Virus record (IMG/VR): IMGVR_UViG_3300043567_001187
Span: 30,486 to 94,485 of that record
Direction: 5' to 3' (one strand)
Source: a virus
Length of the DNA: 64,000 nucleotides
In this document: positions 11,189 to 63,024 of the stretch, piece after piece
Position numbering within the stretch: the first letter of the stretch is position 1
Layout: each line of letters starts with the position of its first letter
Program-made: the position numbers and the translations under genes
The notes under the pieces: model-generated
The model's input: only the letters and a program-made list of their open reading frames with translations
What the model was told of the DNA's origin: nothing
Database searches by the model: none

Positions 11189-12198
11189 TTTATAATGCCC
11201 ATCATGTCTTTAATACTTACTACTAATTGTTCATATACTTCTGGATGTTCGACTAAATATTGTCTTACTTTTTCTGTACCTTGAAATTTTGGTTTATCAT
11301 CAACACAGTTTAAAGTATACCAAGCACCTCCCTTATGAATCAAACCCATATCAGAACCTAAACTAATAGCTTCTGTATATTTATCAATTCCTTGTCCATA
11401 TCTAATATAACTAGTAATATTACCTCCAGGTGGCCCCAGAGCAGAACAAATAACTTGCCATTCTATTTCTTGACCAATTTGAGTATTATCGGCACCTAAA
11501 GTCCATGGCTTAAAAGTTTTTGCTCTTAGTTTGATATCTGTTTGATAAGCTATAGCCTGACCACTCTTCTCTTTAAATTCTGCACCATATCCTGTTGGAT
11601 TACCCATTAAGTGAGTAATACCAATAACTATATTTTTATTAACGGGAATAACGTTGGCTACCTTTCTACAAAATTTAGCTAATAGTTTTGCTCCGTCTGC
11701 TCTTTGCATCTTGTCCATTTCGCTTGTAATCTCTGCTTCTGTACATAGTGCAGAATATGAGTCGATAATCAATACAGAGCCTGGAACTTCATTAATAATT
11801 TTTTCAGCTATTTGTAAATATTCTTCGGCATGTAATATTTTACCCTGTTGACTTCCTATAACATGAAATCTATCCAATAATAATCCTGGTATACCTTCTA
11901 GATCTCGTTTTTTCAATCTACCTTCGATATTTAGATAATACACTTCTCTTGGACTTTTCAGGTTGCCCTTATATTTTTCTTGTTGTGCAGTAGCGGCGAA
12001 ATCTAGACTACTCGTAGTCTTGCCACATTTGGGTTGACCGGTCAACACAACAAAACTTCCTTCTGGTATTCCACCGTTTAAAAGAATATCTAATGATGGA
12101 CTGACTGGTATAACGACACTTTTTCTATCTATTATAGCGTTGCCGGTGACTATAATATCGTCCCCAAAGTTCTTAACTACATCTTCCTTTAAACTCAT
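11182..12198 (-). CDS. recA: RecA/UvsX-like recombinase
   Basis: SLDILLNGGIPEG, GQPKCGKT, IIDSYSAL, GGAWY. Confidence 0.9.
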   Translation of the reverse strand: MSLKEDVVKNFGDDIIVTGNAIIDRKSVVIPVSPSLDILLNGGIPEGSFVVLTGQPKCGKTTSSLDFAATAQQEKYKGNLKSPREVYYLNIEGRLKKRDLEGIPGLLLDRFHVIGSQQGKILHAEEYLQIAEKIINEVPGSVLIIDSYSALCTEAEITSEMDKMQRADGAKLLAKFCRKVANVIPVNKNIVIGITHLMGNPTGYGAEFKEKSGQAIAYQTDIKLRAKTFKPWTLGADNTQIGQEIEWQVICSALGPPGGNITSYIRYGQGIDKYTEAISLGSDMGLIHKGGAWYTLNCVDDKPKFQGTEKVRQYLVEHPEVYEQLVVSIKDMMGIIKC

Positions 12199-30142: not shown

Positions 30143-31220
30143 AGCTATGATTCTTTATTAGAGTATTAAGTATAATTTGTGCTGTTTGATCCCAAGAATA
30201 TTTTTTAGCCGTAATTAATCCTTCAGGATTAGAGTCTATATTATTAGTATACACAGTTCTCATATATTCTATTGACTGTTCTAGTGCATTATGGTCTAAT
30301 TTCGCCCAATTACCCTGACCATGAAACCATTTACCATCATTAGCCGGTTCAGTTTCATTAATATTTACTAAAAAACTATTTTTACTGTTACAATACTCTG
30401 TGTGAGCAGAATAGTTCGTGGTGATAATTGGCTTATTTAATGCCATGCTTTCTATGATCTCATTATTCCACCCTTCCGCCCTGCTTAGAAATACGCCACA
30501 ATCACAAGAGTCTATAAATTCTGCCACATGATACTGTGTTGGTAATCTATCATAAATTTTTATTTTATCTTTGAGCGGTGATTGAGATACTATATTAAGC
30601 CAATAGTTTGTTTCATTTTCTGAAAGAAAGGGGTTGTGTGGTAGCAACCATAGTTCTACTTTATCATTAATATCAAAAGCTTTACTAAATGCATGTATTA
30701 AAAAATCCTGAGACTTTCTGTGTTCCCATTTTCCTATATGAAAAAATATATAATTTTCTTTAGCAAATCTTATTTTATTTTTTAGTTGAAAAATGTCTAA
30801 GTCTACTCCTAAAGGAGCAACATATATTGGTTTGATTATTTGGTTGTTAATTAAAACTTGTCTAGCCCATTCAGAAGCCACAAAAATATAATCACTATAA
30901 TTTAGGTGGTGAACTTCACGAGGAGTTAATTTATCAATTTCGAAAAAGGGAAATGTATAATAATGCCCATTACCAATTTTAGACGCTAAATCGTGTTGGT
31001 GCCATATTTTTAAACAGGGGGCATCATAATTAAAATCATTAATTTTTAACATTAAAGATTTAATAAGATCAACATCGTTTTGAGAATTTACTTCTATATT
31101 AGTGCCAATAGGAAATAGGGCTGTTTGTACACCGGCCTTATGAATAGCCTTGACTATATTGGTAGAGGTTATACCATATCCAGTACTGTTAATAGGACAA
31201 TTAATATTTATTGATTTCAT
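30114..31220 (-). CDS. GT4 glycosyltransferase
   Basis: STGYG, GKWEHRK, SRAEGWNNEIIESMA. Confidence 0.88.
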   Translation of the reverse strand: MKSININCPINSTGYGITSTNIVKAIHKAGVQTALFPIGTNIEVNSQNDVDLIKSLMLKINDFNYDAPCLKIWHQHDLASKIGNGHYYTFPFFEIDKLTPREVHHLNYSDYIFVASEWARQVLINNQIIKPIYVAPLGVDLDIFQLKNKIRFAKENYIFFHIGKWEHRKSQDFLIHAFSKAFDINDKVELWLLPHNPFLSENETNYWLNIVSQSPLKDKIKIYDRLPTQYHVAEFIDSCDCGVFLSRAEGWNNEIIESMALNKPIITTNYSAHTEYCNSKNSFLVNINETEPANDGKWFHGQGNWAKLDHNALEQSIEYMRTVYTNNIDSNPEGLITAKKYSWDQTAQIILNTLIKNHSYANSKTKRR

Positions 31221-46466: not shown

Positions 46467-46844
46467 TTAGCGATTCAACCAGTCTGTAAAATTATGATAA
46501 TTACTATAACCTACTTTTCTTTTACTTTCTATATTATTTTTTAATACAAAATAATCCGGAATAGTTTTTACCTGATATTCTTTAGTTAGATCTAATCTTT
46601 TTTCAGTATTAACATAGCAGATGATATAAGTGTCAAAGTCTTTTATATTTTGATCTATGTCTTTTTTCATAATATTGCAAAATTTACACCAGTCAGCAGT
46701 AAAAACTACTAATATCGGCTGTTGAGTATCTTGGGCTATCAAAACAGCATCTTCTAAAGAATCATTAATATAAAAAGAATTACATAATCCAGTATTAGAT
46801 AAAGTAATAATAAAAAATATAATGCTATATAGTATTTTATTCAT
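46467..46844 (-). CDS. exported thioredoxin-like protein
   Basis: Signal peptide, FTADWCKFC, TIP. Confidence 0.85.
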   Translation of the reverse strand: MNKILYSIIFFIITLSNTGLCNSFYINDSLEDAVLIAQDTQQPILVVFTADWCKFCNIMKKDIDQNIKDFDTYIICYVNTEKRLDLTKEYQVKTIPDYFVLKNNIESKRKVGYSNYHNFTDWLNR

Positions 46845-47842
46845 AATACGTTTGAGGCTATCAAACATCCTTTTGCAACAGCGTGTAGTGGATCGTTAGC
46901 GTGTTTGACTACTTTAATAGCTAAAGGAAAATTATTTAGTTCTAATTGTTTGGTTAATTGTTCTACATAACCATCTGCCTGAGAAGTACCACCAGCTATT
47001 ACTATAGTAATAGGATTTTTAAATTTAGGCAAAGCTTTGCAGTTTTTTAATGCAAAACTTAATTGTTTAGCAGTATACTCTATGAGCCTCTCATAGTACG
47101 AGGCAACGGCTGATAAAACAGGATTGGGGTTGGGTTCGCCCACTTTAAAACCACCAGCCTCCTTCTCAGCCTGGACTACACTATCGGGTTCTCCTGTGGC
47201 AACAGCACTCATTCTATCAACCCAGTCGCCAGATTTTGTAGTGCTAAAGGCTACGGTAGGCTCACCGTTTAACATAATACAAACATTGGTCATACCAGCA
47301 CCACAACTAATACCAATGCCTGTATAATCTTCTTCTCCTAATTCAGCATAACATAAGGCTTCAGCTTCATTAATACTTCTAGCATCGTATCCACAGTCTG
47401 ATAAAACAGTTTTTACAACATCTTCATGATATCCTACGTCAAAATCATCATCTTCTTGATCTACTGGTTGAGCAGGGACGCAGAATACTAGTTTTTCATT
47501 GGGTTCTGATGCTGTTCCGACTACTTCTTTTAGAATAAAAGCTAAAATTCTTTTGGCATCTTTTTCTTTTGAAGAGACTACACCTTTATACATGGGTCTT
47601 TTTGCTGTGTCATTTCTTTCTATAGCTTTCTCGATAGCATCTTTGCCCAGAAGAATAAAAGAACCATCATTATCTTTAATAAAAACCTTACCCGACAATC
47701 CTTTTTCTATCATTTTTGTGGCTACGGGGGTGGATGGCTTTATAGTATAAAAAGCATCTCTAAAATCTTTATATTGTATATTTCCGTCATTTTCTTTTGC
47801 TAATACTATAAAACTTGTACCCACATCAAGGCCACAACTCAT
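46841..47842 (-). CDS. actin-like ATPase (MreB/MamK/ParM superfamily)
   Basis: GLDVGT, FCVP, INEAEA, GISCGAGMTNV, IAGGTS, AVAKG. Confidence 0.85.
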   Translation of the reverse strand: MSCGLDVGTSFIVLAKENDGNIQYKDFRDAFYTIKPSTPVATKMIEKGLSGKVFIKDNDGSFILLGKDAIEKAIERNDTAKRPMYKGVVSSKEKDAKRILAFILKEVVGTASEPNEKLVFCVPAQPVDQEDDDFDVGYHEDVVKTVLSDCGYDARSINEAEALCYAELGEEDYTGIGISCGAGMTNVCIMLNGEPTVAFSTTKSGDWVDRMSAVATGEPDSVVQAEKEAGGFKVGEPNPNPVLSAVASYYERLIEYTAKQLSFALKNCKALPKFKNPITIVIAGGTSQADGYVEQLTKQLELNNFPLAIKVVKHANDPLHAVAKGCLIASNVL

Positions 47843-48140: not shown

Positions 48141-49058
48141 TTATAGTATTAATGGTTTGTCTCCTAATATTCTACCCTTTTGGGTACGTTTTACATACCC
48201 CGCCCTGACCAAATATGGCTCAATACTATTTTCAATAGTCTCAATAGCAATACCTGTCATAGACGAAATACTCTTTAATCCTAGCGGAGTACCTTTGGCC
48301 TTAATGAGTTCTTTAAGATACATAACGTCATAATTATCAAGACCAATATTATTTATACCCTGATTATTAAAAACCTCTTCCATACTCACTGTTTTATTCT
48401 TATAGAAGGATTTATAACTCTTATACCATTGTAGTCTAGAGTTTAAAATACGAGGAGTTCCTTTACTTCTTTTAGCAATCTCCAGCAAGTCATTTTCAGA
48501 GATCATTAGTCCGAGCTTTTTTGCGTTCAACCCTGCTAGTTTGGCTAGTTCATGCTCATCATAGAACACCAAATGTTCCTTGATGGTAAACCTATCATAA
48601 AAGGGTTGACTCAAACTTCCCCCACTAGTAGTAGCACCAATAAGTGTAAATAGTGGCAGATTAATAGTTTCTGGTTTGTCCTTGTCATCCTCTCCCTTTA
48701 CTGTGATATTTAGTACAAAATCTTCCATCACAGGATAAAGAAATTCTTCCACGATTTTAGGCAAACGATGAATCTCATCAATAAATAATACTGATCTGGG
48801 CATCATGCCCATAAGATAGGGAAGTAGATTCTTGATACTACGAATATTAGCAGCATTGATAGTATGCAAATTTACAGCAAGTTCATTAGCAACAGCACTC
48901 GCTAATGTGGTTTTACCAAGCCCAGGAGGTCCGTCAATTAAAATGTGTGGCATAGTAGATGATGACTCTACGCAGCCACTAACAATAATGCGTAGTCTAT
49001 CCACCACACTAGACTGCCCAATAATATCGTCAAACTTAGATGGTCGTACAATGTTCAT
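48141..49058 (-). CDS. ruvB: Holliday junction branch-migration ATPase RuvB
   Basis: RPSKFDDIIGQ, GPPGLGKTT, FIDEIHRL, LYPVMED, GATT, DRF, GTPR, IEPYL, RTQKGR. Confidence 0.93.
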   Translation of the reverse strand: MNIVRPSKFDDIIGQSSVVDRLRIIVSGCVESSSTMPHILIDGPPGLGKTTLASAVANELAVNLHTINAANIRSIKNLLPYLMGMMPRSVLFIDEIHRLPKIVEEFLYPVMEDFVLNITVKGEDDKDKPETINLPLFTLIGATTSGGSLSQPFYDRFTIKEHLVFYDEHELAKLAGLNAKKLGLMISENDLLEIAKRSKGTPRILNSRLQWYKSYKSFYKNKTVSMEEVFNNQGINNIGLDNYDVMYLKELIKAKGTPLGLKSISSMTGIAIETIENSIEPYLVRAGYVKRTQKGRILGDKPLIL

Positions 49059-49440
49059 TTCTTAAAATCTCCAAGGTATTTTTTATTAGTAATCCAATAT
49101 CATTGGTTTGTTGGTTGGCGTATGCTTTGCTTAGTAATTCTTTAGACTCGTTTTTAGTAAACCCATATGGTAATAGTGCTTCTATAGCACGATTTAATAA
49201 ATCTTCTGGAATAGATGGTGGCGATTTTGTTTCTTTTGGCTTGATTGGTTTAGTGGCATACTTCAATTTAAATCCAGTAGTTCTTTTAACAGAAAAAACA
49301 CAGCCGCAATCACATACAATCTTAAAATTTTTAGTCGATGTTTCTAATAGAGAAAGCCAGTGTATATTAAAACATTCTGGACATCTATACTGAAGATGAA
49401 TATCGTAATCAGTCGGTTTCTGGTTTTTCTTTGTTTTCAT
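49036..49440 (-). CDS. Zn-ribbon protein with RuvA domain III-like C-terminus
   Basis: CPEC..CDCG; AIEALLPYGFTKNESKELL..DIGLLIKNTL; directly upstream of ruvB. Confidence 0.65.
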   Translation of the reverse strand: MKTKKNQKPTDYDIHLQYRCPECFNIHWLSLLETSTKNFKIVCDCGCVFSVKRTTGFKLKYATKPIKPKETKSPPSIPEDLLNRAIEALLPYGFTKNESKELLSKAYANQQTNDIGLLIKNTLEILRNEHCTTI

Positions 49441-49819
49441 CTTTTATCCAAAAAATAAAGTCATTAGATTCCTCGTCAAATCCTGTCTCTAATAATCCCT
49501 TATTAACCAAACCATTCAACATATTACTAACCATACGATCATTAAATAGTGTTATCATTTCCATAAAAGAATCGTCTGTCACAATATATCTAACTTGTTT
49601 AGTTTTTTTATTGATTTGTTTTTTAATAATGCTTTTTGCTATAATCATTGATTCTTCTTGAGAAAGAACTTGGTTAAATTCTTCTAGTTCTTCTATTTTT
49701 ACATCCTGAATTAGATCATCGGATGGATTGTCTTGATTTTTACCAAAGTTATTAAAAACCACCGATCTACTAGATAATACAAAACTATCTATATCCTTGA
49801 TAACATATTCTTTATTCAT
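49409..49819 (-). CDS. hypothetical protein
   Basis: ORF. Confidence 0.6.
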   Translation of the reverse strand: MNKEYVIKDIDSFVLSSRSVVFNNFGKNQDNPSDDLIQDVKIEELEEFNQVLSQEESMIIAKSIIKKQINKKTKQVRYIVTDDSFMEMITLFNDRMVSNMLNGLVNKGLLETGFDEESNDFIFWIKDENKEKPETD

Positions 49820-49826
49820 AGTTTCC

Positions 49827-50246
49827 TCAGTTTAAAATATCGTGCAGTCCATTATAATAGGCGGGCTGTTGTATGAAATAAGCAGCGTGGCTTTGTAGGT
49901 GTAGTTTATACTCATTATTAATTTTATCAACTACAAAATATTTCTTTTTCCAGATGGGGGAGTTTTGATAATTGGACCCCAAATACTGTAAGGAATTACC
50001 CTTATCAGTATTGGGATTCCAACTATTCACAGGAAACTTCTTCTCATAAAAACCGGGAATACTAACTATGTTATAGTCACTAGGAGGATTCTTAATAAAA
50101 TCATTAATTAGATCATCAAGCCATTTAGAAACAGGATTGTCTGGCCCAACGTCGAATTTATAATACCATTTGTATGGATCTTTTGGCACATCATCATAGT
50201 TATAGTCATCATAATCCTCTTCGTTATCATCGTATGATTCGTGCAT
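49827..50246 (-). CDS. hypothetical protein
   Basis: ORF. Confidence 0.55.
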   Translation of the reverse strand: MHESYDDNEEDYDDYNYDDVPKDPYKWYYKFDVGPDNPVSKWLDDLINDFIKNPPSDYNIVSIPGFYEKKFPVNSWNPNTDKGNSLQYLGSNYQNSPIWKKKYFVVDKINNEYKLHLQSHAAYFIQQPAYYNGLHDILN

Positions 50247-50248
50247 TT

Positions 50249-51484
50249 TTAACCAATACAAAAATGATCGCTAAGTTTATTCGCCAACTCTTTAGCGGAC
50301 GAAGATAGGAATCTGTTGTTACTAAAATAGAGTGGGGTGCTTACTTGATTAAGGAACTCCACGACGGTTTTTAAAAGTCTAGTCTGCTCACCGTCTAGAC
50401 TTAAAACATCATCGCCTGACGCTTCCTGACGCTTGTGACACGATCCTTCGTGGGGCAAGGTAGTGTCGATTGAATCAGTCTCGTCGTCTACCTCATTCTG
50501 AGCAAGTTCGGAACAAAGAATATCCTCTTCTTCGGAATCATCAACTAGATCATATTTAATATTTTGTTGACTATTCTTCTGACCACAACCCATAATATTA
50601 TTGAGTAAATACTTGGCTTGATCTATGACTCCGTAACTCTTTTTGTTTTGAAGATCATTTAGAATCTGTTTAGCAACCTCGGTCGATACTGGGATGCCAG
50701 TTTCATCAGATTGCTTATACGCAGTCGCATAGCCCTTATACCATTCGTCGCTGCATTTCTCTGGAACAATACTAATGTTTGCTGGTTGACCCGTTAAGGC
50801 ACTCTTTAGATCAGCAACATTAATTGGATTACCAGTTGAGCCACTAAGAATACTAGTAAAATAAGGTTGCTTACCTTCCCAACCTTTCCTCCACCAAGTA
50901 TAAGGAACTCGATAAATCTGATTGGCTTTAATCGCTCTTGGATCACCACCAAAATAGTTGACAAGTTTCTTCTGTAGACCGTTCCAGAACGTTTTATTTT
51001 TACCAATCATTTTTACTGATTGTTCATCAAAAAGCCAATAGCACTGATAACCATTACGAGTATCAACAACCCAACTTGGGGCTACTGGAAACTCGTTGAT
51101 AGTTTTTAGAAAACCCTTCTTCTTTTGCATTACAACGCTAGGCTTAAAATACTTGCCCTCATTGTCTCGCCCAGCATCCATATCACAGAAGCAACAGGTA
51201 AAGTTGTTAATAGCATATAGTTTTCGCCCACCATTAACATAAAAGTAAACATCAGAATTTTTCTTCACATTTGCTTCTGTAGCCTCAACTAGTCGATTAG
51301 TATGATTCATACTACTAATCTTTTTTCTAGGATCTCCATTATAGCAAAAGATGTGTTTGATACCAAAAGAGTCTAAAAACTTTTCTCTTGGCCTAAAATA
51401 CATTTTGCCGTGAGGGGAAAGTTTATGATCAAACGGATTGAATCCTAAATTATCGCTAAACATAATATGTCCTGTTTCTTTCAA
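50249..51484 (-). CDS. RepB-type primase (AEP superfamily) domain protein
   Basis: VYFYVN, FCDMD, PSWVVDTRNGYQCYW, GGDP, IYRVP. Confidence 0.7.
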   Translation of the reverse strand: MKETGHIMFSDNLGFNPFDHKLSPHGKMYFRPREKFLDSFGIKHIFCYNGDPRKKISSMNHTNRLVEATEANVKKNSDVYFYVNGGRKLYAINNFTCCFCDMDAGRDNEGKYFKPSVVMQKKKGFLKTINEFPVAPSWVVDTRNGYQCYWLFDEQSVKMIGKNKTFWNGLQKKLVNYFGGDPRAIKANQIYRVPYTWWRKGWEGKQPYFTSILSGSTGNPINVADLKSALTGQPANISIVPEKCSDEWYKGYATAYKQSDETGIPVSTEVAKQILNDLQNKKSYGVIDQAKYLLNNIMGCGQKNSQQNIKYDLVDDSEEEDILCSELAQNEVDDETDSIDTTLPHEGSCHKRQEASGDDVLSLDGEQTRLLKTVVEFLNQVSTPLYFSNNRFLSSSAKELANKLSDHFCIG

Positions 51485-59050: not shown

Positions 59051-59749
59051 TTATTCAAAAACATAAGACCAATAACGAGAATCAGTTTTATTTTGTTTTG
59101 CATCCCAAAAAATACATCTAGCAATATACGGGGGAACTCCTAATTTACCACAATTAATACTCCAATGCCTCTCCATTTTCTTATATTCCTCCAAACCTTT
59201 TTTAGATTGATAGGTTAAGGTTTTCATACCATACAATTCCAACATATGAGTATCTCCACAAAATACCCTACACTCATTAGGATGGCATTGTTCCAATGAA
59301 AACGAAACTTTTGCAGTACCTAGTCCAGAAATATTCTTGACAATCTGATCTCTCTTTTTTACATGATACTTTTTGGCTGTTAGATAAAAATCTTTGGGGT
59401 TGGCCCAAAACTTATCCTTAAAATCCCAAATAAACTTTGTACGATTGTTATATAGTCCACAACCGCTGTTCTTAATCTTGTTTCTGAGAAGTTCTTTATC
59501 ATCAATCCAATCATTAAAGTCTTTGATAGCATTATATCCACTCACATTAGACTTCCATGTGGTATGAACGCTCATAAAACTAAACAAATATCGACGAAAA
59601 ATATCTTCATGATTTTGTGGCCTAACACTTTCCCAGTATTCCTTATAGGCTACAACCCTATCTCTAGGAAAATTCTCAAAGAAAATATCAGCCTTAGTCT
59701 TGTTCATGTCAGTATTCTGAACCGGAATCACTGTATTCTCAACAATCAT
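59051..59749 (-). CDS. HhH-GPD DNA glycosylase-like protein
   Basis: ISGLGTAKVSF...GDTHML. Confidence 0.65.
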   Translation of the reverse strand: MIVENTVIPVQNTDMNKTKADIFFENFPRDRVVAYKEYWESVRPQNHEDIFRRYLFSFMSVHTTWKSNVSGYNAIKDFNDWIDDKELLRNKIKNSGCGLYNNRTKFIWDFKDKFWANPKDFYLTAKKYHVKKRDQIVKNISGLGTAKVSFSLEQCHPNECRVFCGDTHMLELYGMKTLTYQSKKGLEEYKKMERHWSINCGKLGVPPYIARCIFWDAKQNKTDSRYWSYVFE

Positions 59750-60469: not shown

Positions 60470-61786
60470 TTAATCTATTCTCTTATCTCCATGCAAATAC
60501 TTAAACGTAGGAAAACGCAAACTAATACCACCATCCTGATTCTCGCTTTCGCTAAAATATTGGACAGTAATTACTTTTCCAAGAATTTTCTTAGGGTGTT
60601 TGTAAAAGTCTTGACGCTGTTCAATACTAAATCCGCTACCAACTCTAACGTCATGGTTCTTATATTTAATAGTTACACAACTAAGCATAGTTTCCTCATG
60701 TTCTGCACTATTCTTTACGTATCTAAATGGCCCCATTTCTACATCTACTACTTCATACTCATCATCAAAAAAACTCTTATATTTAAGAAGGTCTTTGCTT
60801 CTTTTACCCTTATAAGGCTCATTTGCTCTGAGCATCAAACCTTCCCAATTGTATTCATTGGCTCGACCAGTCCATTCGGCAAAATGGTCATCGTCTTTAA
60901 TGAGTTCTTGACCAAGTACACTCAGACAAACGCAAGTATTTTCTCTCATTACTTCTAGTAGATTATTATAACGAATAGAATATGGTTTGTTCGACTGCCC
61001 CTTCTTGCTATAAAATTCATCGTTACTAATCATATCAAAAATTTTATATGATGGATTAGGGATAGTATGATCCTTCTTTTTTAGTTGTTTCATAACCCCC
61101 TGAAAATCCTCATTACCTTCGTCATCAACAAGACAAAGTTCACCATCAAATACTATATTAGTAATGTTAAGAGCCTTAATACCGCCCCTGACAACATCAA
61201 GAGTATCAAAGGTTTTTCCCGTGCGGGAATAGAAGGTAGTATCACCGCTGCTATCAACAATGCCGATACATCTAGCACCATCAATCTTTCTGCTAACATA
61301 CCAACCATCCTTCCAGTCTACGAGTTTAGGTTCGTACTTATCCGCCAGAGCAACGCTAAACTCTGGAATATGATCCGGTATAGCCTTGTTGATAATCTTA
61401 TCACCCGCTCTGGTTTTCAAGTCCTTATCAATAATACAATGAATTAGTTCCTCATATTCGTCATTATGTTCAATAAAACTATTGACAGCAGCAATAGCAT
61501 CGTGACCAGTAATCTTACGGTCTTTTAGATCATCCAAAAGATCAAAGAAATTACTGTATTCATTCTTTCGTGCAACAAGATGATTCTTTTTCTTTAGATT
61601 ATCACTTGTTACATTATATTGCCACAAAGGATGATAAGTATAAAGAAGAATTTTCTTAGCAAATATCGCTGATGGATTATTGAAAATCCCACAATTAATC
61701 TTAATAAGATCTTCTTTGTCTTTTGTACTACTAGTTGCTCTCAGGGCATCAACCATATTCTGCACATAATCAAAATCGTGAGTCAT
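60470..61786 (-). CDS. ATP-dependent DNA ligase
   Basis: KIDGAR, SRTGK, FDGEL, IFD, EGLMLR, KRSKDLLKYK, VGSGF, LRFP. Confidence 0.95.
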   Translation of the reverse strand: MTHDFDYVQNMVDALRATSSTKDKEDLIKINCGIFNNPSAIFAKKILLYTYHPLWQYNVTSDNLKKKNHLVARKNEYSNFFDLLDDLKDRKITGHDAIAAVNSFIEHNDEYEELIHCIIDKDLKTRAGDKIINKAIPDHIPEFSVALADKYEPKLVDWKDGWYVSRKIDGARCIGIVDSSGDTTFYSRTGKTFDTLDVVRGGIKALNITNIVFDGELCLVDDEGNEDFQGVMKQLKKKDHTIPNPSYKIFDMISNDEFYSKKGQSNKPYSIRYNNLLEVMRENTCVCLSVLGQELIKDDDHFAEWTGRANEYNWEGLMLRANEPYKGKRSKDLLKYKSFFDDEYEVVDVEMGPFRYVKNSAEHEETMLSCVTIKYKNHDVRVGSGFSIEQRQDFYKHPKKILGKVITVQYFSESENQDGGISLRFPTFKYLHGDKRID

Positions 61787-62056: not shown

Positions 62057-62681
62057 AAAACCATAACTCCTCATTACTTTCACTTATCCATTTATTGCCA
62101 CTATATTCACAACTAAATTCTTTGCTAAATACCTTCCAATGAGGTTTAGTATCAAATTTTCTACTAATAAAACTCCCACCATCTAACCAAAATATTCTAT
62201 TATTAGGCTGAATAAAATACTGACCATCTCCAACAAAAACATGACCACATTTATGTCCTCCAGCCATTTCTCCATATCCATTATTATATTGTGGCCCTAA
62301 ACACCAGTCTAGCGTGAACATATACTGTGCTTTTTCTATAGTTTTATTTTTTAATAACAAATTTGCTGCTCTATTTTTTGTATACTGATTAATATTAACA
62401 GAAACATAATAACTTAAACTATCCCATAGTTGAATCCAATCTAAGGAATAGTTAGTTCCTCCATTTTGTATGGAGTGTAAATAGTGTATAGGAACCCTGG
62501 CGTGTTGACTACCATACTCTGTCATTATGCTAAATAAACCGCATCTTTGAGGTATGCTAGTATAACCAAAGACTTCTACCAAGGTTCTAGGGTTGCTAGA
62601 TTTTGGTTCTTCATTATAAAAAAAAGCATTATCTACATAAGCAGAGAATACTGGGACATCTATATTGAGATAATTACTCAT
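62031..62681 (-). CDS. conserved phage hypothetical protein
   Basis: QLWD, YMFTLDW, HKCGH, QPNNR. Confidence 0.65.
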   Translation of the reverse strand: MSNYLNIDVPVFSAYVDNAFFYNEEPKSSNPRTLVEVFGYTSIPQRCGLFSIMTEYGSQHARVPIHYLHSIQNGGTNYSLDWIQLWDSLSYYVSVNINQYTKNRAANLLLKNKTIEKAQYMFTLDWCLGPQYNNGYGEMAGGHKCGHVFVGDGQYFIQPNNRIFWLDGGSFISRKFDTKPHWKVFSKEFSCEYSGNKWISESNEELWFYEFKEKMD

Positions 62682-63024
62682 ATTTTCTATTCCTTGATGC
62701 TATCAAGTAATTTACTGCTTTTATAACACTATCTAAATTATCTCCTAGTTTTCCAAGACCAGTATTGCAAGGTTCGCAGATCCAACCCCTAAAACTATCA
62801 TCAGAATGATCATGATCCAAACACCATTTGTATGGAACTTTTCCACAAAGTTCACAAAATTCTGGTTTTGGTGGGGCAGTTTTATGTAATCCACTTCGTA
62901 TCTTAGAATGTTTTTTAACACACTTTCTACATCTACTATCTAGATTATCTTTGTACATACTGTGTTTAGGAAAACTTTTAAGGTTTTTTCTTTCACCACA
63001 GTAGGTACAAATTTTTCTAGGCAT
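62674..63024 (-). CDS. endonuclease VII-family nuclease
   Basis: CELC, LDHDH..RGWICEPCNTGLG.LGDN; N-terminal CxxC pairs. Confidence 0.85.
   Translation of the reverse strand: MPRKICTYCGERKNLKSFPKHSMYKDNLDSRCRKCVKKHSKIRSGLHKTAPPKPEFCELCGKVPYKWCLDHDHSDDSFRGWICEPCNTGLGKLGDNLDSVIKAVNYLIASRNRKYE

Follow-up and report, generated by a model that had tools for sequence, protein, structure and literature searches.

The locus analyzed here raises the question of which partner serves a phage-encoded RuvB motor when the gene occupying the ruvA position does not encode a canonical RuvA. RuvAB is the textbook branch-migration machine of bacteria. The window, a stretch of 64,000 nucleotides (nt) spanning positions 30,486 to 94,485 of the IMG/VR virus record IMGVR_UViG_3300043567_001187 (94.5 kb, estimated 68% complete), has a GC content of approximately 32% and carries nearly every gene on the minus strand. 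Within it, a ruvB gene encoding 305 amino acids (aa; 48141..49058, minus strand) is preceded by a 134-aa gene (49036..49440, minus strand), the end of which overlaps the start of ruvB by 23 nt in a different frame, as determined from the list of open reading frames (ORFs). An earlier note, made from the sequence alone, had placed a 134-aa gene in the ruvA position overlapping ruvB, and the coordinates and overlap agree with that description. The 134-aa product, referred to below as the adaptor or mini-RuvA, combines a predicted zinc ribbon with a homolog of RuvA domain III and is probably a minimal, domain-swapped RuvA substitute serving the phage's own RuvB motor.

The adaptor C-terminus is homologous to RuvA domain III

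The adaptor family was represented by a profile of 42 sequences (A1), over which all conservation counts reported here were obtained, and bacterial comparisons made use of 32 full-length RuvA and 32 RuvB proteins from bacterial genomes. When 177,635 distinct PDB sequences were searched with the A1 profile, seven matches scored at E≤10, all of them RuvA proteins and all of them located on domain III. The best match was 1IXS_A (E=0.0017), the T. thermophilus RuvA domain III crystallized with RuvB. Profile-profile alignment against the 32 bacterial RuvAs using hhalign mapped adaptor residues 78-134 onto residues 163-220 of the RuvA template, that is, onto domain III only (Prob 94.4, P=8.4e-8), and the corresponding controls yielded P values of 0.19-0.81, whether profiles were reversed or the comparison was made with the family's N-terminal half or with the two neighboring gene families. 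A PHROG scan of the 134-aa adaptor as a single sequence returned no match.

Comparison of predicted folds led to the same assignment. In an AlphaFold2 (AF2) model of the adaptor, with a mean predicted local distance difference test (pLDDT) score of 84.6, the C-terminal domain (residues 78-130; 49051..49209, minus strand), the putative RuvB-docking module, is composed of three helices. Foldseek searches with this model placed RuvA domain III at ranks 1-5, 7, 9 and 10, albeit with E-values of 0.4-1, and the top such match, 7pbl_G, superposed with a template-modeling (TM) score of 0.81 and a root-mean-square deviation of 1.6 Å (probability 0.99). In a VIA-align search of 48,161 chains, RuvA domain III occupied ranks 1, 2, 4, 5 and 7 with Z-scores of 6.6-5.2, 6.6 and 6.4 among them, above the 3.8-4.8 obtained for UBA and CUE domains, and UBA families were absent from the sequence-search matches of the adaptor family in Pfam and the PDB. 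RuvA_C is annotated on 50% of the members of a sibling cluster in the ESM Atlas, and a few family members carry the automatic JGI name of RuvABC DNA-binding subunit, the names of others being varied (e.g. RpoP, YaaW). For a domain of 50 residues each of these tests is modest when taken singly, but the combination of sequence-profile, profile-profile and fold comparisons with clean controls settles the matter, and the C-terminal ~50 residues of the adaptor are a genuine homolog of this RuvA domain. What the earlier note had read here as a RuvA domain III pattern is thus borne out, and the similarity to RuvA_C on which that reading depended is present at the profile level.

The residues through which domain III is expected to contact RuvB are retained. 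An HMMER alignment including the Salmonella and E. coli RuvAs equates adaptor residues L89, Y92, G93, F94, E98 and L123 with E. coli RuvA L167, L170, G171, Y172, E176 and L199, respectively. Both G93 and E98 are invariant in the family, and the counts at the remaining positions are as follows: position 89 is Leu in 35, Met in six and Phe in one; position 92 is Tyr in 35, Phe in six and Leu in one; position 94 is Phe in 39 and Tyr in three; and position 123 is Leu in 41 and Ile in one. In E. coli, the L167A and L170A substitutions abolish RuvB-dependent function and leave junction binding intact, as reported in PMC2628435, which cites Nishino 1998. Because the equivalents of the contact residues are conserved and their E. 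coli counterparts show these mutant phenotypes, the positions under constraint in the adaptor are those relevant to docking. The adaptors of three loci (L037, L049 and L007) present LGY or LGF at the turn, the canonical motif of bacterial RuvA, in place of YGF, and all three are accompanied by a RuvB with a long-tip hairpin.

A predicted zinc ribbon takes the place of the junction-binding domains of RuvA

The N-terminal part of the adaptor is unrelated to the corresponding part of RuvA by every comparison made. Pfam detected neither RuvA domain I (RuvA_N, PF01330), an oligonucleotide/oligosaccharide-binding (OB) fold, nor the helix-hairpin-helix (HhH) domain II (HHH_5) in the adaptor or its 42 relatives, alignment of residues 1-70 with RuvA by hhalign gave P=0.81, and before residue 79 the AF2 model contains a single short helix. 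Instead, residues ~10-61 (49258..49413, minus strand) are predicted to form a four-stranded C4 zinc ribbon, with beta strands at residues 15-19, 26-30, 39-42 and 48-51 (pLDDT 88-96 overall and 91-96 in the model of the whole adaptor) and two Cys pairs located on beta-hairpin knuckles in a CxxC...CxC arrangement. All four cysteines, C20 and C23 (CPEC) and C43 and C45 (CDC), are invariant in the 42 relatives, as are W28, E33, T36, K37 and K40. The domain is strongly basic, with a mean net charge of +7.6 and an isoelectric point of 9.4, and its mean pairwise identity exceeds that of domain III (59% versus 36%). When the ribbon was modeled alone, its nearest folds were the generic small ribbons of ZitP, eS27 and LysW (Z 2.2-3.3), and since these matches are generic and do not exceed a Z-score of 3.3, the fold itself offers no functional lead.

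The ribbon is flanked by two flexible segments. Between it and domain III lies a Lys/Pro/Thr-rich linker (residues 62-77; 49210..49257, minus strand), modeled with low confidence (pLDDT ~69), which ranges from 9 to 36 aa across the family and contains 21% Lys. Ahead of the ribbon, the first nine residues (49414..49440, minus strand) constitute a basic peptide with consensus KKNQKP, predicted to be unstructured (pLDDT 61-72), in which K8 is found in 38 of 42 members and P9 is invariant; given its conservation and predicted disorder, the peptide may act as a short linear motif that binds a partner. A CPEC zinc ribbon in place of OB-fold and HhH domains, followed by a Pro/Lys linker, had also been noticed at the outset, and both observations hold across the family. 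With its ribbon, Lys-rich linker and domain III, the adaptor copies the layout of RuvA, in which an anchor is joined through a flexible tether to domain III, using a different anchor.

The phage RuvB retains its catalytic motifs and has a remodeled hairpin

The 305-aa protein encoded downstream matches three Pfam models above their cutoffs, namely RuvB_N (4.3e-47, covering the whole model, positions 1-159), the RuvB lid (3.4e-9) and RuvB_C (7.5e-19), and its residues 3-301 align with RuvBs of solved structure at E-values from 1e-52 down to 2.5e-63. Relative to the 32 bacterial RuvBs, the Walker A (GPPGLGKTT), Walker B (LFIDEIH), sensor 1 (GATT), arginine finger (DRF) and sensor 2 (GTPRI) motifs are identical or conserved, and the basic positions of the C-terminal hairpin segment (KRTQKGR) are retained. 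On the basis of its domains and catalytic motifs, the phage RuvB is predicted to be competent.

The element to which RuvA binds shows a different pattern of conservation. In E. coli RuvB, the RuvA-binding presensor-1 beta-hairpin spans L135-L152, according to PMC2628435. The docking surface published for domain III is made up of alpha3 and this hairpin. The phage protein contains a hairpin insert at the expected place (residues 116-134; 48657..48713, minus strand), which is the putative docking element for domain III. Across the 32 bacterial proteins the hairpin reads as a near-invariant LDIIIGKG-PSARSIRLDLP, whereas in the phage clade it consists of LNITV, a tip of one of two lengths, short or extended by five residues, and a conserved PETIDLP. 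Overall, 51 of the 305 RuvB positions are conserved in both groups with different residues, and these differences are densest at residues 68-89 (48792..48857, minus strand), where they affect 13 of 22 positions. The mutual information between hairpin class and adaptor alignment columns, which is confounded by phylogeny and redundancy, was 0.42 for domain III and 0.26 for the zinc ribbon, so that the link between hairpin class and domain III columns is suggestive only. The term canonical, as applied to this ruvB in the earlier note, therefore holds for its three domains and catalytic motifs, but not for its RuvA-binding beta-hairpin, which has been remodeled. This remodeling suggests that adaptor and RuvB have co-evolved, and it may insulate the pair from host RuvA and RuvB.

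The adaptor-ruvB pair is invariant across a family of viral loci

The adaptor family comprises 69 clusters at 90% identity and 51 viral loci, and a HMMER scan of 1.84 billion proteins expanded it to 475 clusters at 50% identity. The family appears to be viral. RuvB is encoded directly downstream of the adaptor in all 48 loci whose contig reaches past it, the other three of the 51 being uninformative because the contig ends inside or just past the adaptor gene. By gene order, the adaptor gene is thus always translationally coupled to the phage ruvB, and the synteny across phages that had been proposed as a check on the pairing is found in every informative locus. RuvB identity across loci ranges from 63% to 79%, and that of the adaptor from 32% to 54%. 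A search for longer or fused forms of the adaptor found none, which is weak evidence.

The pair belongs to a longer conserved block with the order rIIA, rIIB, (primase-like gene), 144-aa gene, 136-aa gene, adaptor and RuvB, followed farther on by a small membrane protein and an actin-like ATPase. Immediately 5' of the adaptor, and overlapping its start by 32 nt, lies the co-operonic 136-aa gene (49409..49819, minus strand), which is found directly upstream in 51 of 51 loci and the product of which shows weak, recurrent matches to winged-helix families (DsrD, HTH_56, TrmB, Cdc6_C), suggesting a probable C-terminal winged helix. The co-operonic 144-aa gene farther upstream (49827..50261, minus strand) keeps its position in 50 of 51 loci, the contig of the remaining locus (L017) beginning too near the gene, and its product gave no Pfam or PDB signal. 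The possibility that these two genes encode RuvA domains I and II in disguise was considered and rejected, as hhalign returned P values of 0.21 and 0.39 and PDB searches returned no sequence matches. Likewise, a pseudogene or degraded RuvA was rejected as an explanation for the adaptor, the family being large, its domains clearly constrained and its N-terminus a distinct fold.

Two further components of the block were observed. The primase-like gene (411 aa; 50249-51484, minus strand), located between rIIB and the 144-aa gene and presenting weak matches to RepB_primase and to PHROG primase/polymerase families, occurs only in some relatives (loci L003-L006, L008-L009 and L013-L017 among them) as a variable cassette within an otherwise fixed order. 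The actin-fold ATPase (46841-47842, minus strand) matches Pfam Volactin over its full length (4.7e-64), is 69-84% identical across the clade and always follows RuvB, from which it is separated by a small protein of 89 aa; the Volactin family is named after an archaeal actin.

Cultured phages did not yield close relatives of either protein. A tblastn search of the adaptor against GenBank phages returned nothing meaningful, and among 50,697 GenBank phage records no close relative of the phage RuvB was identified: full-length RuvB matches were all below 40% identity and sat on records that resemble fragments of bacterial genomes or the edges of prophages, the remaining matches being clamp loaders or RarA. 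A RuvB search of genome contigs recovered only distant AAA+ proteins and phage contigs binned into metagenome-assembled genomes (MAGs), and no ruvAB operons of bacteria. Three clade contigs reside in such bacterial bins (L053, RFTN01000003.1, 141 kb; L054, RFVO01000059.1; and L055, RFVO01000070.1), with bin names of 'bacterium WB4_3_0875' and 'Chitinophagia bacterium WB5_3B_105'. The contigs may have been binned wrongly, or else their placement weakly points to a host among the Bacteroidota. One relative (G003, 178 kb) is flagged as a provirus by IMG/VR.

Recombination genes encoded with the pair

The wider gene content was examined in the 94.5-kb record and in three complete relatives (CheckV 100%, 152-223 kb). 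The absence of a nearby ruvC, remarked upon earlier for the immediate surroundings, extends to these four genomes, in which neither RuvC nor RuvA_N was detected above cutoff. Each complete relative encodes exactly one RuvB, and no second RuvA-like partner for it was found in these complete genomes. A RecA-family recombinase is present in all four; the Pfam-matched part of the RecA/UvsX-family gene lies at 11383..12183 on the minus strand of the window (PF00154, E=3e-18). The window also harbors a candidate junction resolvase of the Endonuclease VII family (Pfam Endonuclease_7, E=9.8e-12, above cutoff; 62674..63024, minus strand), located 13.6 kb from the adaptor-ruvB pair and detected in two of the three complete relatives, together with an ATP-dependent DNA ligase that also has an OB domain (60470-61786, minus strand; 1e-15) and a glycosylase-like protein of the Ogg-HhH type (59051-59749, minus strand; 2e-7).

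Proposed mechanism and alternative explanations

In bacteria, domain III of RuvA binds a hydrophobic composite surface of RuvB and wedges adjacent subunits apart, leading to ADP release, and its tether to the RuvA core on the DNA lets it serve as the fulcrum of the RuvB lever stroke, as described in recent cryo-EM work (PMC9477746); stimulation of the RuvB ATPase requires RuvA and a junction in combination, as stated in PMC10071043. We propose that the phage pair would operate on the same principle. Domain III of the adaptor would dock on the presensor-1 beta-hairpin surface of the phage RuvB and act there as nucleotide-exchange factor and motor fulcrum, with the flexible Lys-rich segment standing in for the linker between RuvA domains II and III, and the basic, conserved C4 zinc ribbon would take over anchoring from domains I and II, in all likelihood by binding DNA directly. 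The pair would then move branch points or remodel forks in recombination-dependent replication, in conjunction with the phage RecA-like recombinase, the DNA ligase and, in some members, the Endonuclease VII-family nuclease, and would fill the role that UvsW has in T4. That the adaptor is a domain-swapped RuvA substitute for the phage motor is, on balance, the reading that we consider probable. A bolder extension of it is put forward with considerably more reserve and is, in our estimation, rather doubtful: that RuvB can be driven by a mini-RuvA devoid of the tetrameric junction-binding core, with domain III on a zinc-ribbon DNA clamp sufficing for nucleotide exchange and fulcrum, yielding a host-insulated motor that acts on substrates other or broader than Holliday junctions, with forks, D-loops and duplex DNA as examples.

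Several observations weigh against the reading of the adaptor as a RuvA substitute. As a single sequence the adaptor matches Pfam RuvA_C only below threshold (residues 85-125, E=0.16, 12.9 bits versus a cutoff of 24), and a RuvA_C match at E≤1 is obtained for just five of the 42 family members; moreover, a three-helix domain of ~50 residues is a common fold, with UBA-like domains and FlhA reaching VIA Z-scores of 4-5.8. The second strand of the RuvB hairpin reads PETIDL, versus SIRLDL in bacteria, with a Glu at the position of E. coli I148, and because this strand differs, the docking mode may differ from that of bacteria as well. Direct DNA binding by the zinc ribbon is deduced from charge and conservation, and its fold matches are generic, similar ribbons being known to bind proteins. 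Bacterial RuvA functions as a tetramer or octamer. Regarding the genomic context, the Endonuclease_7 gene is absent from one complete genome and could just as well encode a homing nuclease of the HNH type, and T4 UvsW found no match in the clade, a weak negative given that the search used a single sequence.

In a different role envisaged for the adaptor, domain III still docks on the phage RuvB but the ribbon binds a protein, sending the motor to a substrate that is not a Holliday junction. Candidates for this partner are the two neighboring products, the winged-helix-like 136-aa protein and the 144-aa protein, as well as components of the replisome or of the packaging machinery. The small C4 ribbons of closest fold (ZitP, LysW, Tim15) are protein-binding modules, the conservation of the ribbon greatly exceeds that of domain III, as would be anticipated for a fixed macromolecular partner, and the conserved unstructured N-terminal peptide resembles a short linear motif. 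The near-universal presence of the 144-aa and 136-aa genes directly upstream (50/51 and 51/51 loci), in overlapping frames, is compatible with such a partnership, in which the 136-aa protein could be the DNA-binding subunit. Nevertheless, the +7.6 charge of the ribbon and the Lys-rich linker suit nucleic-acid binding, the neighboring proteins are tied to the adaptor by position alone, and profile comparison of the ribbon with the two neighbors, which assesses homology and not binding, returned nothing. Retargeting of the motor through a protein partner is therefore regarded as unlikely, although it ranks ahead of the two explanations that follow.

The remaining explanations are much less likely, because the pairing with ruvB is invariant and the controls are clean. 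According to one of them, the adaptor is a decoy directed at the host, its domain III binding host RuvB or competing with host RuvA so as to inhibit or hijack host RuvAB, with the adjacency to ruvB being incidental. Bacterial RuvB can be bound by an isolated domain III (1IXS, 7PBL), the canonical LGY/LGF motif occurs in some lineages, and complementation between RuvA and RuvB of different species is known, as mentioned in PMC9477746. An incidental adjacency is, however, at odds with a gene order and coupling that do not vary in 48 of 48 informative loci and with the presence of one RuvB per genome and no other RuvA-like partner in the clade; a pure decoy would have no need for a highly conserved basic zinc ribbon, and the hairpin of the phage RuvB, with a conserved sequence of its own, implies a dedicated partner. 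We thus deem a decoy very improbable. Still harder to credit is a chance resemblance, in which the C-terminus would be a UBA-like three-helix bundle with some other function, e.g. in a transcription factor. The brevity of the domain, the sub-threshold Pfam match, the Foldseek E-values, the Z-scores of other three-helix domains and the varied automatic names all leave room for it, yet three independent methods place RuvA domain III first with clean negative controls, the RuvB-contact residues are conserved, and the gene occupies the exact ruvA position in every locus.

A mini-RuvA that serves the phage's own motor hence remains the preferred account. The central proposal of the earlier note, that the protein is a RuvB adaptor, is supported by profiles, predicted fold, interface residues and invariant synteny. 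Of the two roles which that note had envisaged, loading of the RuvB motor and modulation of host RuvAB, the former, applied to the co-encoded phage RuvB, is favored, since the adaptor is coupled to that RuvB in 48/48 loci and the hairpin has diverged from bacteria, and the latter has lost ground for the same reasons. On the bolder extension, the motor-control function of RuvA would have been naturally split from junction recognition. The phage family amounts to a natural experiment on the exchange-factor and fulcrum model, with domain III and tether kept and the junction-binding core swapped. Its two small, easily expressed proteins make it possible to ask how little a RuvB motor can require of its partner, and the pair, if insulated from host RuvAB, could serve as an orthogonal DNA-remodeling module.

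Comparison with known systems

A literature search for phage RuvBs with a non-canonical RuvA partner found no description of one. The parts are already known (RuvB, RuvA domain III and the zinc ribbon); it is their architecture, and its setting in a clade of uncultured phages, that were not found in the literature searched. Compared with the RuvAs of E. coli, T. thermophilus and M. tuberculosis, the adaptor shares a homologous domain III with the same hydrophobic and Gly/Glu positions, a flexible linker ahead of it, and a gene located directly upstream of, and coupled to, ruvB. Unlike them, it lacks the OB-fold domain I and the HhH domain II, the parts of RuvA that build the tetramer and bind four-way junctions, and carries in their stead a 50-residue basic C4 zinc ribbon, for a total length of 134 aa as opposed to ~200 in RuvA. 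Its best profile and fold matches are isolated RuvA domain III fragments (1IXS chain A; 7PBL-7PBT chains G/H), which show that domain III alone docks on the presensor-1 hairpin surface of RuvB. Those fragments are laboratory truncations, whereas the adaptor is a natural protein with another anchor and with a partner RuvB whose hairpin has been remodeled.

Among viral systems, T4 UvsW acting with gp49 Endonuclease VII likely performs the same job for its phage, the processing of intermediates generated by a RecA/UvsX-type recombinase, and an Endonuclease VII-family nuclease is also encoded by some members of the clade. The motors differ, the phage clade using an AAA+ RuvB hexamer and T4 the superfamily 2 (SF2) helicase UvsW. 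The RuvC-like resolvases of jumbo phages and poxviruses provide a second point of comparison, representing, according to Iyer et al. 2021 (PMC7824862), viral RuvC proteins without a RuvB-like ATPase. As in those viruses, part of the bacterial RuvABC system has been acquired by a virus, but the subset is the opposite one, the clade keeping RuvB and an adaptor with domain III while lacking both RuvC and a canonical RuvA. Where surveys give viral RuvC without RuvB, the family described here fills the complementary gap in phage biology with a RuvB-adaptor pair that is widespread in metagenomes.

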